Assembly: GCA_018651605.1 (NCBI GenBank)
Contig: JABIDS010000009.1
Location: 84,563 to 148,562 of the forward strand
DNA from: an archaeon
Lineage (GTDB): Archaea > Nanobdellota > Nanobdellia > Pacearchaeales > GW2011-AR1
Reading direction: 5' to 3'
Length of the DNA stretch: 64,000 nt
In this document: positions 35,746-51,320 of the stretch, piece by piece
Layout of the letters: each line of letters begins with the position of its first letter
Position numbering within the stretch: position 1 is the first letter of the stretch
Notes under the pieces: generated by a model
Databases searched by the model: none
What the model saw: the letters and a program-made list of their open reading frames with translations, nothing else
Told to the model about the DNA's origin: nothing
Position numbers and translations under genes: made by a program

Positions 35746-35818
35746 CCCTCGATCGTATAATGGTTTATTACAGGCGGCTGTAGACCGCTTAATGCGAGTT
35801 CGATTCTTGCTCGAGGGA
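35746..35818 (+). tRNA. tRNA-Tyr (GUA)
   Basis: Acceptor ccctcga/tcgaggg with the C1-G72 pair typical of archaeal tRNA-Tyr; anticodon stem ggcgg/ccgct with loop ctGTAga; T arm gcgag-ttcgatt-cttgc; discriminator A. Confidence 0.85.
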
Positions 35819-35819
35819 T
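35808..35819 (+). repeat. attL core (tgctcgagggat) at 3' end of tRNA-Tyr
   Basis: Exact 12-bp repeat of 50573-50584. Extends to 18/21 matches (35799-35819 vs 50564-50584). Confidence 0.75.
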
Positions 35820-35875: not shown

Positions 35876-36970
35876 ATGGCGTTAGAAAACCAATACAAAA
35901 GAAGAAAAGAAGAATTATTAAATAATGTTTCTCCTTCAAATAAAAAATTATTTAATAAGTTCTTTGAATGGGAAGAGAACAAATTAAAGAGGAGTAATGG
36001 TATCTCAGAAATAGACGAAAGAAGCTATAAAACCCTTATTCTCTACATTCATTATTTTAAAAATTTAAATAAATGGTTTAAAGGAAAAGATTGGAAGAAG
36101 CTAACAAAAAAAGATATTAGAAAAGTATATGATGATTTAGAAGAGGGAAGAATAAAAAAATCCAATGGGGAACCTATGAAAGACAAGGTTTCTTATTACA
36201 ATAAAGTTTTCAAATCCAAGCCTTTTTCTCTTGCAGGAAAAAAAGATATTGCAGAAGAGGTTATTGAATTTACAGCCCCACAAATAGAACCAGTAAGATT
36301 TATTACTGAAGAAGATTTTAAAAAATTAGTTAAGGTTGTAGGTTTAAATTTTAAATTAATGTTTTGGTTGTTATGGGACATAGGAGAAAATGTAGGGTCT
36401 ATATTAGATTTAAGAAAAAAGAACTTTGTTAGAAAGATTGATGAAAATAAAGAACCAGAATATCATGTAATTCTTAACAAAGAAATTCTTAAAAGAAGTA
36501 GAACTCCTAGAACTGAACCAACACATTATAAGGAAACTGTTGAATTATTAGATTTAGTTTTACGAGACTTAAAAGATGATGATAAAATCTTTAATTTCGG
36601 AATGAGATATGCTGAACAAATTATGAAAAAAGCAGTTAATAAAACTAAAATTAAATGTAAACCTTCTGGAGAACAACCAACTATCAAAGATTTAAGAAGT
36701 GGAATGGCTTGTCATCTTTTATCAGAATGGGGATTTTCCACAGATGAACTTAAATCAAGATTAGGACATAAACCTTCTAGTAGGGCTATAGATAAATATG
36801 TTAATTATCTTGCTTTAAATAAGGTCCAACCAAAAAGAAAAATTTATGAGAGCAATATTAAACAATTGGAAACAGAAATTAAAGAGATGAGAGAAAGAGA
36901 AAAAATAAAAGATAGGAAAGTTCAAAAGCTTCAGGAGTTCTTAGATAAAATGGAGAAGAGGTTTAAATAA
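35876..36970 (+). CDS. tyrosine recombinase / integrase
   Basis: C-terminal catalytic pattern: DLRSGMACHLL (R, H), RLGHKPSS (H) and IDKYVNY (Y). Sits next to the tRNA att site. Confidence 0.8.
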   Translation: MALENQYKRRKEELLNNVSPSNKKLFNKFFEWEENKLKRSNGISEIDERSYKTLILYIHYFKNLNKWFKGKDWKKLTKKDIRKVYDDLEEGRIKKSNGEPMKDKVSYYNKVFKSKPFSLAGKKDIAEEVIEFTAPQIEPVRFITEEDFKKLVKVVGLNFKLMFWLLWDIGENVGSILDLRKKNFVRKIDENKEPEYHVILNKEILKRSRTPRTEPTHYKETVELLDLVLRDLKDDDKIFNFGMRYAEQIMKKAVNKTKIKCKPSGEQPTIKDLRSGMACHLLSEWGFSTDELKSRLGHKPSSRAIDKYVNYLALNKVQPKRKIYESNIKQLETEIKEMREREKIKDRKVQKLQEFLDKMEKRFK

Positions 36971-39460: not shown

Positions 39461-39880
39461 ATGGAGGTATTTAATATGAAAGTTGAAAGATTAATTTTAA
39501 GTTTGTTGTTATTTGTAGCAGTTTTTGTAGCTTTATTCTTTTTCATGCAATCAAATGAAGGATTTACGGGTAATGTTGTAGGAATAGATAGTAAAGCAAA
39601 AAAGATTGTAAATACGATAACACCTATTAAAAGTGATGCAGATAAGTGTGCAGAGAAGTATTTCTCATGTATTCAAAGATGTCCTCCTTCTTTATTAGAT
39701 GCAAGACTTTTGAGTTATACATGTTTTGTTTCATGTGCAGGGACTTATGGCGAAGAATGTGGAGAGGTAGGTTATGATTTGAGTTATAGTAATGAGGCGA
39801 AGATTGATTGTTTAGGTGAATGCATGACAGATTCTAAAATAATGACTTATAAAATAAACTGTATGGATAATTGTTTGTAG
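39461..39880 (+). CDS. secreted cysteine-rich protein
   Basis: Signal/TM helix followed by about 10 Cys in 90 aa. An alternative start is ATG 39476. Confidence 0.55.
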   Translation: MEVFNMKVERLILSLLLFVAVFVALFFFMQSNEGFTGNVVGIDSKAKKIVNTITPIKSDADKCAEKYFSCIQRCPPSLLDARLLSYTCFVSCAGTYGEECGEVGYDLSYSNEAKIDCLGECMTDSKIMTYKINCMDNCL

Positions 39881-39902: not shown

Positions 39903-40835
39903 TTATAATTCTATTTCAACCCAAACTAAATAATGGTCTGATTGTTCTTTAGTTATTTCTGTATAAATTCCATCATCAACATATTCTTCATTCATATCAT
40001 CATTTATAATAATTCTATCATAAGCACAATCTGTTTGTGAAACAGTTGTATCTTCACCATCTTCAATTAGATAATTCCAATCTACAAAATCTCCAGCCTT
40101 TCCATCATCATAACTACAATCTAAATTAAAATCTCCAATAATTAGGACATTTCCTGAATCCTCAACTAAATTTTCAAGTAAATTAATATCTTCTTCTACA
40201 CTATCAGGACTTGTATGATAATTCCAAGCAGTTAATTCATAATCATCAATAAGAAATTCAACCTTTAGTGGTGGTCTTTGAACTTCATCTTGATATTCTG
40301 AAGTATAATCAGTTAATGTTGCTTCAATACTTTTCTTATAGATAACTCCATATTGTTCTTTGCTTGTAGATTGACCTGCTCTTTGAGATATTTGACAATC
40401 ATAATCTTCTAATGAACTACAAAGAGTATTGAATGAACTTCCATCTTTATCTCGGATTTCTTGAAGGAAAAATATGTCATAATCTTCTATTAATGGAACA
40501 AAAAAACTTGAACCTAATTTACCCCATTTAGAATCTCCAAATATCTGTGCATTAAAGTTTGCTATCTTAATGTTTTGTGAATTAGGTTCTGGTTCATCTA
40601 TTACTTCTTTCTCTTCTTTATCGTCATCTTTCTCTTGTTCTTCTTCATCCTCACCATCCTCAAAAAATTCTTCTTTTGTTTCTTCAATAAAATCTTTAGT
40701 GTTTTCTGTTTGTTCTTCAATAATTCTAATAGTATTCCCTGTAATAGTATTAGTATCACTTGGAATCAAATAAAAGAAACTTCCAATTCCAATTACCAAT
40801 AAAAATATTAGTGTGAATAGTAATTTTTTAGCCAT
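39903..40835 (-). CDS. secreted endonuclease/exonuclease/phosphatase-family nuclease (DNase I-like)
   Basis: N-terminal TM/signal and acidic linker; IANFNAQIFG, FFLQEIRD, IIGDFNLDC and C-terminal SDHYLVWVEI are the EEP catalytic motifs. Confidence 0.8.
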   Translation of the reverse strand: MAKKLLFTLIFLLVIGIGSFFYLIPSDTNTITGNTIRIIEEQTENTKDFIEETKEEFFEDGEDEEEQEKDDDKEEKEVIDEPEPNSQNIKIANFNAQIFGDSKWGKLGSSFFVPLIEDYDIFFLQEIRDKDGSSFNTLCSSLEDYDCQISQRAGQSTSKEQYGVIYKKSIEATLTDYTSEYQDEVQRPPLKVEFLIDDYELTAWNYHTSPDSVEEDINLLENLVEDSGNVLIIGDFNLDCSYDDGKAGDFVDWNYLIEDGEDTTVSQTDCAYDRIIINDDMNEEYVDDGIYTEITKEQSDHYLVWVEIEL

Positions 40836-40836
40836 T

Positions 40837-41016
40837 TTATTTTTTTCTTAACTTATTTGCATATTCGACCTCTAATCTCTCATTTTTTTTAAAAGATTTA
40901 AGTAATCTAACAATTATAGAATTATAAGTTTCACCTTCCCCCAATCTTAAATTTTCAAGTTCTTCCTTAGTTTCCCTTGATACGACAATTTTAGGATTTT
41001 GTGGATAAGCTATCAT
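40837..41016 (-). CDS. small CopG/VapB-antitoxin-like protein (59 aa) immediately upstream of the DNase gene
   Basis: Hand-translated MIAYPQNPKIVVSRETKEELENLRLGEGETYNSIIVRLLKSFKKNERLEVEYANKLRKK follows the IxVSxETxxxLxxLxxGEsYxxVIxxLL pattern. Its stop lies 1 nt before the DNase ATG. Confidence 0.5.
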   Translation of the reverse strand: MIAYPQNPKIVVSRETKEELENLRLGEGETYNSIIVRLLKSFKKNERLEVEYANKLRKK

Positions 41017-41069
41017 AATATATTGTAATGTATTAGATATAAAAGGATTTAGTTAGGGGATTAAGATAG

Positions 41070-42841: not shown

Positions 42842-42941
42842 TACCTAGTTAAATAATTTTCTAAATAATCATCTGATTATTTATTAGAAAAAACTTAAAT
42901 ATGCTTAAAATCTCTCTAAAATAAAGAAATGATTAAGGAAA

Positions 42942-43541: not shown

Positions 43542-43662
43542 GGGTTAGCCATTGGAAGCAAAACAATCACATGATTGTTTATTACACATAAACATCCTTA
43601 TGAAAATAACTACTTAAAATTAATTGTTTTAATCTTATTCTTTTGTTAATCTTTGCTAAATT

Positions 43663-44991
43663 TTATAACATTTTTATTTTTGAAATTAACAAATTTCGAA
43701 TATCTCCACCACTACAATAAACACTATTTGAACCCTTTCCTAGAAGAAATTCTTCTTCCCTAAGACCCAACGCCCTAAGAACTGCCATAAGTGATACTTC
43801 TGAAAATTTATATTTACTTTCACTTAAACATTTTTCATAATAAAATAAACTAATATTCGCCCCAATAATTTTGTTATCTTCTAAAACATATTCTTGATTA
43901 ATTGCAGGAGTTCCATCAAGCCAAAAATCCGTTTCATAAGAAAATGATTCTTTACTTATATTTTCATATTTTTTACAATAAAATTTAAGGTTTGAGGATT
44001 CCTTATCGCCTTCATAAATTAATAATTCTTTTAACGCATTTATTTCGATTTCTTTTATGGCATTTTTGATGTTATCAGTAGCATAATCTTCACAACCCAA
44101 TATTGAGTAAGTTACTGGATAATTATTCCATAAATAATTTTTCTTTTCTAAAATTTCTTCCTCTTTTTTTAATTCTACTTCATATTCTAAATCATACGGA
44201 TATATATTCAAGTTTGAACAATCTCCTTTAATTTCTCCATTAGAGTAGATGTGCTTTAAACAATTTATTGTATCTGCATCTATCTCTTTTATTTTACAAG
44301 TTTGAATAGAAATTTTTAAAGGGAACATTATCTGATTAGGAGTATCATAAACATGTCTAAATCCGAAGGTATGCAATATTTCATGAATTTCTGTCTGTGG
44401 AAAATCAAGACATTTTCCATTATAACTTCCCAGATAATTTGAAAAGAAAATTACTTCCCCAGTATTTATTTTATTTTTGTTAAAATCAGTAATTCCTCCG
44501 ACTCCTAAGACTTCCCATCCATCATAATTTTGATAAGTCCCATTAGAATCATAAAGTCCTTGAATTTTAAGTTTAGGATTTTCAGTTTCACTAACTTCCT
44601 TGAAGGTAATTAATCCTTCAGTTTCTTCTTCAATAATATTTAGTGCCTCTTTAATTCTTTTAACTTGCTTATTTCTAGAAATTCCATCCCTATACCAACT
44701 TTGACTTGATTCAGAATAGATGCCTAATGATGAGATATTTAAACTATAAGTTATAGGCATTTCTCTCCAATGCATTTCATTAACTTTTGAAAATGAATCA
44801 TTAATCAAATAATTTTTATTTTCTTTATCATAATCCTCATACGAATATTTCTTAGGAGTTTCTTCCAGATTTATTTTTGATGAATAAAAAAAAGCCAAAA
44901 CTAAAAAAATCATAAATACTAAAATAATTAAGAAATTTTTAAAACTATCTCTCTTTACATTTTTCCCCATTTTATTTTTTTCCCAATTCAT
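43663..44991 (-). CDS. secreted/anchored metzincin zinc metalloprotease (matrixin-like)
   Basis: HEILHTFGFRH (HExxHxxGxxH) plus the Met-turn QIMFP. N-terminal TM helix. Paralogous motif block to 33969-35024. Confidence 0.8.
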   Translation of the reverse strand: MNWEKNKMGKNVKRDSFKNFLIILVFMIFLVLAFFYSSKINLEETPKKYSYEDYDKENKNYLINDSFSKVNEMHWREMPITYSLNISSLGIYSESSQSWYRDGISRNKQVKRIKEALNIIEEETEGLITFKEVSETENPKLKIQGLYDSNGTYQNYDGWEVLGVGGITDFNKNKINTGEVIFFSNYLGSYNGKCLDFPQTEIHEILHTFGFRHVYDTPNQIMFPLKISIQTCKIKEIDADTINCLKHIYSNGEIKGDCSNLNIYPYDLEYEVELKKEEEILEKKNYLWNNYPVTYSILGCEDYATDNIKNAIKEIEINALKELLIYEGDKESSNLKFYCKKYENISKESFSYETDFWLDGTPAINQEYVLEDNKIIGANISLFYYEKCLSESKYKFSEVSLMAVLRALGLREEEFLLGKGSNSVYCSGGDIRNLLISKIKML

Positions 44992-45178
44992 TCATTAATT
45001 ACATTATATATTATAAAAATAGAGAGAGTGAGTATTTATTAAATTAACCCTTAGAAGTCCAAACAATCACCTGATTGTTTATTGTGAAGATTTGGATGGT
45101 TTTTAGAAGTAGAAATGAGTGATTTTAGGAGGTAGATTATTTAGTAAAGTTTTTATATCATATTTTATTAAATAATCT

Positions 45179-50532: not shown

Positions 50533-50572
50533 TCCCTTAATTGTTTAAAACCCGAACTATAACTTCTATTAC

Positions 50573-50584
50573 TGCTCGAGGGAT
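50573..50584 (+). repeat. attR core (tgctcgagggat)
   Basis: Exact 12-bp copy of the tRNA-Tyr 3' end (35808-35819). Confidence 0.75.
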
Positions 50585-50630: not shown

Positions 50631-51320
50631 ATGGAAGAGGGGATGTTAGAAGCAGCAAAGGTATTAGAATCTGAATCTAGAAATAATGGTTTTCTATTGA
50701 TTGTTTTTTTGATTTTGAGTTTTATGATTATGGTTGTGATTTCGATTTTTGGGTTTTTTTATTTTGGTGGAGATTCTGATGAAGGTAATAAATCTTTTTC
50801 TAATGATAGTTTGTTACAAAGTAATGTAAGTGCAGGTTCTGTTGTGAATGTTAGTGATGGAGGTGGGGAAGGTGTTAATGGATCTTTGGTGGGAGATGAT
50901 AATTCTAGTGATGAGGGTGTTAATGAGTCTGTTTTTGATGATGGAAGTGTTCCTAATCCGACAGGTTCTATAAAAATTTTTAAGATAAAAGATGATGAAG
51001 GAGAATATTTTTGTAATAATGTTACAAATTCTGAGCATGGAGTAAGGGTTTATACTTATAGGATTGTGAATGGGGTTAAGAATTTGTCAGAAGAATTTGT
51101 GGATAGTGCTAAAGTGAATAATTTGTGTGACCATTTTAATGTTAATGTGACTAATTATTATATAAAATGGGAATGGGAGGCTGTTGAAGGTATTGATGGC
51201 TATAGAATTTATCAGCATTATGCTCTTAATAATATTACTAAAAATTATAATTATTATGTTGATATGAAGGTTGGTTTTCATTCGTTAATTGATATGGGTT
51301 TGGATTTCTGGGTTTCTTGA
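50631..51320 (+). CDS. membrane-anchored secreted protein, hypothetical (FN3-like C-terminus)
   Basis: TM helix, G/S/D/N-rich linker, then YYIKWEWEAVEGIDGYRIYQ. Uses the chromosomal G/T-ending codon style. Confidence 0.6.
   Translation: MEEGMLEAAKVLESESRNNGFLLIVFLILSFMIMVVISIFGFFYFGGDSDEGNKSFSNDSLLQSNVSAGSVVNVSDGGGEGVNGSLVGDDNSSDEGVNESVFDDGSVPNPTGSIKIFKIKDDEGEYFCNNVTNSEHGVRVYTYRIVNGVKNLSEEFVDSAKVNNLCDHFNVNVTNYYIKWEWEAVEGIDGYRIYQHYALNNITKNYNYYVDMKVGFHSLIDMGLDFWVS

Follow-up and report, generated by a model that had tools for sequence, protein, structure and literature searches.

A DNase I-family nuclease with a predicted membrane anchor on a tRNA-Tyr-integrated element of a Pacearchaeales archaeon, and the minimal ribbon-helix-helix gene that precedes it

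The window analyzed here (the whole stretch of 64,000 nucleotides, positions 84,563 to 148,562 of contig JABIDS010000009.1 from a Pacearchaeales archaeon) carries on its minus strand the gene for a 310-amino-acid (aa) protein that, by its sequence and its modeled structure, is a genuine nuclease of the DNase I family, and this gene lies on an element integrated at a tRNA-Tyr gene. Immediately upstream of the DNase gene is the gene for a 59-aa protein of the ribbon-helix-helix (RHH) type, here called RHH59. The reading that we consider likely is that of an anchored DNase I-type enzyme, carried as cargo of the element and serving the scavenging of nucleotides, which would be expressed behind a generic RHH regulator in a leaderless operon. 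On the other hand, the idea of a nuclease accompanied by its own small inhibitor, which a first-pass annotation of the same DNA had put forward as one possibility, is not borne out. The features of the locus are the following.

39903-40835, minus strand: DNase gene, 310 aa, the open reading frame (ORF) call of the first-pass annotation being confirmed
39906-40574, minus strand: DNase I-type catalytic domain of the endonuclease/exonuclease/phosphatase (EEP) class, residues 88 to 310 (PF03372, DNase I chains, invariant residues, AlphaFold2 [AF2] model, Foldseek)
40575-40754, minus strand: acidic disordered linker, approximately residues 28 to 87 (predicted local distance difference test score [pLDDT] below 50 at residues 28 to 43 and 57 to 71)
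40770-40832, minus strand: N-terminal hydrophobic helix, residues 2 to 22, a probable uncleaved signal-anchor (sequence MAKK-LLFTLIFLLVIGIGSFFYLI; AF2 helix with pLDDT of about 90)
40833-40839, minus strand: junction between the RHH59 stop and the DNase start, TAA-A-ATG, with a single base between the two codons
40837-41016, minus strand: RHH59 gene, 59 aa, minimal RHH protein of DUF7557 (PF24434 match, jackhmmer, AF2 model, relatives)
41037-41044, minus strand: probable promoter element, a TATA-like box (TTTTATAT) located at -28 relative to the RHH59 ATG (genome-wide TATA peak and locus scan)

The DNase I-type enzyme and its relatives

The two ORFs and their coordinates, the motifs NFNAQIFG, LQEIRD, GDFNLDC, and SDHYLVWVEI in the DNase translation, its hydrophobic N terminus and acidic linker, and the 1-nt gap between the genes (...AAA TAA A ATG GCT on the minus strand, from the RHH59 stop to the DNase ATG) had all been described in the first-pass annotation, and all were confirmed in the sequence. 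An estimate from base composition gives a chance of about 0.6% per frame for a 59-codon open frame in DNA with 28% guanine plus cytosine (GC), and both ORFs, as judged from their sequences, exceed chance; they are taken as real because of the PF03372 and DNase I matches of the DNase, on the one side, and of the PF24434 score and the 13 relatives of RHH59, on the other. The exact RHH59 protein is also present in public collections, on 11 contigs and with the PF24434 annotation, so that its description as a previously uncalled gene has to be dropped.

In Pfam, the sole family matched by the 310-aa protein is PF03372 (E=2.6e-11; 44.1 bits versus a cut-off of 24.5). Among all PDB chains, searched with phmmer, the significant sequence matches are solely those to bovine and human DNase I and DNase1L3 (4e-17 to 5e-15), with which the protein shares approximately 26 to 31% identity over the whole catalytic domain (PDB 1DNK, 4AWN, and 7KIU). 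Two alignments were examined, the first with 29 archaeal relatives and bovine DNase I (30 sequences) and the second with 48 sequences. In both of them, the catalytic and metal-binding residues N95, E126, E160, H207, D235, N237, D273, and D300/H301, equivalent to N7, E39, E78, H134, D168, N170, D212, and D251/H252 of DNase I, are invariant or nearly so, and the full EEP catalytic set claimed for the protein is thus present on alignment to the bovine enzyme. Furthermore, C240 and C270, which align with the essential DNase I disulfide C173-C209, are likewise invariant or nearly so, while the residues of Ca2+ site I (D201/T203/T205/T207 in DNase I) align with D262, T264, S266, and T268, the first two of which are conserved. 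Most DNA contacts are also kept, namely R128, R187, Y242, and Y272, corresponding to R41, R111, Y175, and Y211 of DNase I, together with the contact made by N170.

The AF2 model of the protein (pLDDT 84.8) presents a compact domain at residues 88 to 310, mostly above 90, and the top 10 Foldseek matches of this model are all of the DNase I/DNase1L3 type (target template-modeling [TM] score, 0.73 to 0.79; E of about 1e-17), other EEP enzymes scoring 1e-11 or weaker, so that the predicted fold is the four-layer alpha/beta sandwich in its DNase I form. It follows that the protein is predicted to be a Ca2+/Mg2+-dependent endonuclease of the DNase I type. The functional breadth of PF03372 and the absence of two DNase I contacts, R9 and Y76, might be thought to favor another phosphoesterase, such as a sphingomyelinase, a phosphatase, or an apurinic/apyrimidinic endonuclease, but this is scarcely tenable given that no PDB sequences other than DNase I chains are matched significantly, that the DNase I type leads other EEP enzymes by about five orders of magnitude in fold comparison, and that the disulfide specific to DNase I, Ca2+ site I, and five of the contacts are conserved.

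The 87-residue region ahead of the catalytic domain holds 26 Asp or Glu residues, and its N terminus consists of a basic n-region and a 20-residue hydrophobic helix with no obvious cleavage motif. A hydrophobic segment is present at the N terminus of every aligned relative, with a lipobox-like Cys in some of them. Since the disulfide and the calcium site are conserved and the hydrophobic N terminus has no obvious cleavage site, the catalytic domain would be located outside the membrane, and the protein is probably an enzyme of the outer membrane face on a flexible acidic tether, as far as topology, and anchoring rather than cleavage, can be deduced from sequence and model. The DNase would thus be exported and held at the outer face by the uncleaved helix, with the acidic stretch of about 60 residues acting as a tether. 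The exported DNase with a signal/anchor helix and a long acidic linker that had been predicted earlier finds support in the predicted helix, in the disordered stretch, and in the hydrophobic N termini of the relatives.

The resemblance to vertebrate DNase I and DNase1L3, which are exported as this protein probably is, includes the catalytic residues, the disulfide, Ca2+ site I, most DNA contacts, and the fold. Different from them, the protein of the window is archaeal, lies on a mobile element, and has a predicted uncleaved anchor with an acidic tether in place of a cleaved signal peptide; alignment with bovine DNase I also indicates that it lacks Ca2+ site II and the C101-C104 loop.

A word-index protein search returned 289 relatives of the DNase, most of them about 50% identical to it; those that bear a name are from Pacearchaeota and Nanoarchaeota or labeled "deoxyribonuclease-1-like." A scan of species-representative genomes with alignment-derived patterns (patterns from the single protein, with its variable linker, gave no match) yielded 99 matches, chiefly in Woese-, Pace-, Nano-, and Micrarchaeota, and a few that carry other labels. 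The DNase is present in 11 of the 151 genomes taken from the window's own genus, family, order, and class; one of these 11 is the genome of the window itself, where it occurs as a single copy. Because relatives are many in DPANN archaea yet restricted to these 11 genomes in the closer lineages, the DNase family is common but patchy, that is, an accessory gene. The DNase of the window is one more member of this large family of hundreds of proteins, uncharacterized but recognizable ("endonuclease/exonuclease/phosphatase family"), and follows a known pattern, that of genome-reduced DPANN archaea that cannot make nucleotides and bear close kin of animal DNase I at the cell surface; with its relatives it shares 45 to 67% identity, the invariant residues, and the hydrophobic N terminus or lipobox.

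In the tree of the catalytic domain, the DNase of the window falls in a clade of eight proteins, all with a D/E-rich N-terminal region of 87 to 110 residues, and among the aligned relatives the acidic linker is confined to this closest clade. The wider family, consisting of forms of about 260 aa, is widespread across DPANN lineages and often found on long contigs. In the subclade with the long acidic linker, the known contexts are all those of mobile elements, often with a matrixin-like (M10) protease: the seven closest relatives of the window's DNase are all set among integrase, resolvase, HNH, or restriction-modification genes.

The integrated element, its host, and the probable role of the nuclease

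The location of the DNase on a genomic island had merely been asserted in the first-pass annotation. The features that delimit the island, together with the protease gene discussed below, are as follows.

35746-35818, plus strand: tRNA-Tyr (GTA), integration target (ARAGORN)
35799-35819, plus strand: left attachment site (attL), the 3' end of tRNA-Tyr (direct repeat)
35876-36970, plus strand: integrase-like gene, 364 aa, the first gene of the element (weak match to the phrog_216 integrase, E=2e-4)
43663-44991, minus strand: anchored matrixin-like (M10) metalloprotease, 442 aa (PF00413)
50564-50584, plus strand: right attachment site (attR), matching the 3' end of tRNA-Tyr at 18 of 21 positions, with the exact 12-mer TGCTCGAGGGAT (direct repeat)

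The insert measures 14.8 kb. Its integrase-like gene begins 57 nt past tRNA-Tyr, and the encoded protein has no match in Pfam or NCBIfam. The GC content falls from approximately 33% to approximately 28% between 36 and 53 kb of the window. In a congener (G016), where the gene order is M10/CARDB gene, tRNA-Tyr, p456 homologue, p165, CBS, and thermosome, the distance from tRNA-Tyr to the p456 homologue is about 630 nt, compared with 15.85 kb in the window, which makes this congener an example of the empty site. On the evidence of the att repeats and of this empty site, the island is confirmed, and the DNase locus is part of an element integrated at tRNA-Tyr.

The host genome is about 1.0 Mb in 24 contigs, with an estimated completeness of 84%, and contains a thermosome gene, which marks the organism as archaeal. 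The families PurC and PyrF were not found in it, while the same profiles found both in 14 of 14 control genomes. This is suggestive of a host devoid of markers of de novo purine and pyrimidine synthesis, and it agrees with the nucleotide-scavenging symbiont that had been assumed earlier. In such a cell, the DNase would most likely cut extracellular or host-derived DNA into pieces for uptake and salvage, and the M10 protease of the element would do likewise for protein. It has been proposed that DPANN-type cells live on foreign DNA (PMC7414124), and the DNase of the window fits these proposals.

The association with the protease recurs in the closest clade. Long flanks are available for four close relatives, and three of these have an M10 homologue 1.4 to 2.8 kb away from the DNase gene, on contigs that resemble mobile elements (L001, 1353-2642; L002, 1376-2260; L137, 3318-4184). 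The remaining DNase loci contained none, and neither did 118 kb of control DNA. The M10 protease and the acidic-linker DNase may therefore form an exchangeable set of secreted hydrolases. The addition to what is known of the family is a modest one, namely, that integrative elements carry the nucleases of one subclade, those with a long acidic tether, in the company of a matrixin-like protease, so that secreted "feeding" enzymes would be cargo that these symbionts can exchange.

It is also possible to hypothesize that the nuclease serves the element itself, by destroying incoming DNA and competing elements or by attacking, at the site of contact, the DNA of the cell that hosts the archaeon, with salvage being secondary. 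We regard this as rather unlikely, even though the DNase is cargo of the element, its clade is found among integrase, resolvase, HNH, and restriction-modification genes, its distribution in related genomes is patchy, and two further genes with a nuclease fold lie 1.5 kb away on the same element. In fact, the wider family of shorter forms is widespread in DPANN lineages and often on long contigs (the mobile-gene status of the flanks was not examined), the nucleotide synthesis markers were not found in the archaeon, and the company of a secreted protease is more in keeping with a feeding set than with DNA exclusion. An exported DNase as accessory cargo of an integrated element is known from streptococcal prophages, whose enzymes have a His-Me finger fold; the DNase of the window differs from them in its fold, in its host, which is an archaeal episymbiont, and in its likely role, scavenging rather than immune evasion.

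RHH59, its family, and its pairing with the DNase

RHH59 matches PF24434 (DUF7557) with 27.3 bits, the Pfam gathering score being 25. Its membership in the family is real because jackhmmer seeded with RHH59 recovers the central ORF in 40 of 40 DUF7557 loci of relatives (L094 to L133). Of the 151 related genomes, 109 are matched by the DUF7557 profile, and a single genome may hold as many as 8 copies. Members share a core formed by the strand TTIQ/K, the helix ETKxRLDxLK, a turn, and the helix ETYDEvIxrL, which is the RHH pattern. Their downstream partners are ParE_toxin proteins (ParE/RelE type) in 20 of 29 cases and a MazF/PemK protein in 1 of 29, many at a gap of exactly 1 nt. In view of the 20 ParE partners, DUF7557 is in this clade an RHH antitoxin family, mainly that of ParE-type toxin-antitoxin (TA) pairs, which agrees with the antitoxin-like RHH pattern that had been noticed in the 59-aa ORF. 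No paper mentioning DUF7557 was found in a literature search, and a second modest addition of this work is that this uncharacterized family can be read as one of RHH antitoxins or regulators. A DUF7557 subgroup with a basic tail stands alone beside varied genes (Endonuc_Holl, UPF0489). As a separate observation, two large proteins, P0125 (1053 aa) and P0131 (1635 aa), contain six and two mini-RHH-like stretches, respectively, an unusual repeated use of RHH-like segments inside large proteins.

The AF2 model of RHH59 (pLDDT 84.9) is extended at residues 1 to 13, with helices at residues 14 to 22 and 31 to 58, a layout compatible with the strand-helix-helix topology of an RHH monomer. RHH59 ends 17 residues past the RHH core, with a basic tail, whereas the ParE-linked members add a conserved segment of 35 to 45 residues, and no other full-length member of the compared set is as short. 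Against each of the 40 DUF7557 relatives it reaches just about 20 bits, and it is equidistant from all subgroups. A word-index search with RHH59 found only RHH59 itself; an exhaustive phmmer search of 1.84 billion representative proteins gave 13 relatives at E<=1e-3, the closest of which are mostly of 43 to 59 aa, have 46 to 61% identity, and share QNPKIVV...ETYDSVIVRL. RHH59 thus appears to be a minimal RHH protein, with the predicted DNA-binding core alone and without the toxin-binding tail. With ParD, RelB, CopG-like, and DUF7557-ParE antitoxins, it shares, by alignment, the beta-alpha-alpha core, the Pfam family (in the case of DUF7557), the position as first gene, and the 1-nt spacing. 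Different from a type II TA antitoxin, it has no toxin gene immediately downstream, where the DNase stands instead, and no C-terminal toxin-neutralizing extension, and its closest kin are stand-alone proteins encoded among arrayed small genes of mobile elements.

With regard to expression, we surveyed the 502 host genes that are preceded by 60 nt or more of free DNA. In these upstream regions, the number of TATA-like 8-mers rises to a sharp maximum at -29/-30 relative to the ATG (102 at -29 versus approximately 5 to 12 per position elsewhere), from which it follows that first cistrons are typically leaderless in this archaeon. Shine-Dalgarno-like (SD-like) motifs at -14 to -10 were seen in a minority of the host genes. 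Upstream of the RHH59 gene, TTTTATAT is present without mismatch at -28 and there is no SD-like motif, and the locus scan detected neither a TATA box at the right spacing nor an SD motif for the DNase ATG. Since RHH59 has this box and the DNase has no promoter or SD motif of its own, the arrangement suggests one leaderless two-gene mRNA from 41016 with coupled translation, in which the DNase would be translated via termination-reinitiation across TAA-A-ATG on an mRNA starting at the RHH59 ATG. Termination-reinitiation is documented in archaea. The co-translation that had been proposed on the basis of the 1-nt gap is accordingly probable, the two genes being most likely cotranscribed and coupled, as far as the TATA/SD pattern and the junction indicate. 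It is possible that read-through from five small upstream genes (42250-41070) also feeds the transcript. A scan with a bacterial promoter model gave 14 sites versus 20.8 expected and zero terminators and is uninformative for an archaeon. The heptamer CTAACTA, directly repeated upstream of the RHH59 ATG (at -57 and at -40), was considered as an operator and rejected, since it occurs 10 times in the window versus 8.8 expected, which is not significant, and since the recurrence of a 7-mer within 60 nt is nothing exceptional.

In order to establish how far the two genes belong together, we compared 97 DNase loci besides the window, of which approximately 90 are distinct (seven were fetched by two routes). 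The DUF7557 hidden Markov model detected an adjacent family member in none of these approximately 90 loci, its single match lying 1.7 kb from the DNase and on the opposite strand (L136), so that the copy of the window is the sole one preceded by a DUF7557 gene. Conversely, the closest mini-RHH relatives, for which four contexts were available, have no DNase nearby according to tblastn; one context is a DUF5906 replication-protein neighborhood, another includes a Band_7 gene, and the remaining two are densely packed with small genes that match no known family. The 11 contigs that bear the pair differ from the window by 0 to 2 bases over 0.6 to 1.8 kb and represent one near-clonal element recovered in several samples. 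The RHH59-DNase pairing is thus a one-off and not a conserved unit, and a lack of conservation of the pair in related elements is what the first-pass annotation itself had named as refuting its proposal. Of the two roles that had been left open for the small partner, regulator or inhibitor, the former is plausible, while the latter, and with it a functional module of nuclease and partner, is unsupported, because the pair is not conserved and the partner-binding C-terminal segment is missing. RHH59 would most likely act as a transcriptional regulator, or autoregulator, of the operon or of the element.

A different possibility is that RHH59 is a decaying orphan antitoxin of the ParDE type, whose toxin has been lost or replaced and which merely supplies a promoter and delivers ribosomes to the DNase, with no regulation. 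Its small size, with truncation past the RHH core, its equal distance from all the subgroups in related genomes, and its deviating strand motif could be explained in this way. However, the short relatives with their shared signature form a coherent subfamily, as expected of a minimal form maintained under selection; moreover, the AF2 model is confident and the ORF is intact in 11 of 11 contigs, even if these are near-clonal. We consider decay unlikely.

Less probable is that RHH59 is a dedicated cytoplasmic inhibitor, similar to an antitoxin or immunity protein, which shields the cell's own DNA before export of the nuclease, in a TA-derived module where the DNase has replaced ParE. The prevalence of ParE partners in DUF7557, the 1-nt spacing identical to that of DUF7557-ParE pairs, and the apparent coexpression with the antidote gene first speak for this hypothesis. 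Nevertheless, the DNase family manages without an inhibitor, as the loci lacking an adjacent DUF7557 gene indicate, the closest mini-RHH contexts hold no DNase, and RHH59 is devoid of the C-terminal segment of the ParE-linked members. The DNase itself, needing a disulfide and a Ca2+ site and being probably exported cotranslationally, is likely inactive in the cytoplasm. A small protein gene beside, and apparently coexpressed with, that of a probably exported nuclease does recall barnase-barstar, Anabaena NucA-NuiA, and colicin DNase-immunity pairs; these are conserved together and their inhibitors are not RHH proteins, whereas RHH59 and the DNase are paired in just a single near-clonal element.

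Also very improbable is a newly arisen TA-like or immunity-like module consisting of the two genes, with the DNase in the place of ParE behind a stripped-down antitoxin. If it were true, RHH59 would both repress the operon and restrain the nuclease before export, the element would gain an addiction or attack function, and such a type of TA cargo swap would be undescribed in archaea.

Some observations nonetheless weigh against an anchored scavenging DNase behind a generic RHH regulator. Throughout the archaeal family, the DNase I contact R9 is replaced by Gln (Q97) and Y76 by Ser (approximately S157, read by eye). A nutritional role is not distinguishable from a role serving the element itself, and the missing synthesis markers come from a genome that is just about 84% complete. 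As for RHH59, its strand is PKIVVS instead of the TTIQ/K of the family, so that DNA binding is assumed, and Foldseek gave nothing significant for its model, the best E value being 0.6 (SeqA N-terminal domain and RHH chains of ParD/PrpA). Finally, the lack of conservation of the pair is not a strict exclusion of a recently evolved inhibitor role.

Neighboring genes and minor observations

The genes that flank the DNase vary among its seven closest loci. Four of these loci have an HNH endonuclease gene that adjoins the DNase, immediately downstream of it.

L001, 4946-5988: HNH gene
L138, 2697-3149: HNH gene
L134, 2392-2793: HNH gene
L002, 5419-6120: HNH gene

Two of these four genes are clearly homologous and encode a C-terminal membrane helix. 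In the window, there are instead a DUF559-like nuclease gene and a gene for a membrane-tethered nuclease-like protein, both on the element and 1.5 kb from the DNase. The DNase gene of the window converges with the following gene, the stop codons of the two being 22 nt apart.

39461-39880, plus strand: anchored protein of 139 aa with 10 cysteines

This Cys-rich protein matches no family, and none of the fetched loci encodes a homologue of it. Its gene has a TATA box at -40 of the first ATG and GGAGG before the second ATG (39476), where the start may be located. A recurring partnership with the DNase was considered for it and for a 90-aa Cys-rich protein encoded upstream of the DNase of L001 and was discarded, since the two show no phmmer similarity. 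Similarly, the repeat D4, shared by the DNase start and the M10 start region, is A rich and lies inside the first codons of the M10 ORF; it was treated as a coincidence.

The orientation of tRNA-Tyr relative to p456 varies among congeners (loci L169 to L174 compared with the window), being convergent in the window and in G016 and tandem in four others. In the congener G044, a homologue of the 229-aa gene of the window (50631-51320) lies 43 nt past the tRNA, while in the window this gene lies 47 nt past attR. The tRNA-Tyr site looks like a recombination hotspot.

Lastly, a 23-nt palindrome, AAACAATCAC(A/C)TGATTGTTTATT, occurs in three intergenic copies on the element, listed below.

42863-42885: first copy of the 23-nt palindrome
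43561-43583: second copy
45061-45083: third copy

Both nuclease-fold genes and the gene of the M10 protease are bordered by these copies, and the palindrome could be an operator or a terminator element.

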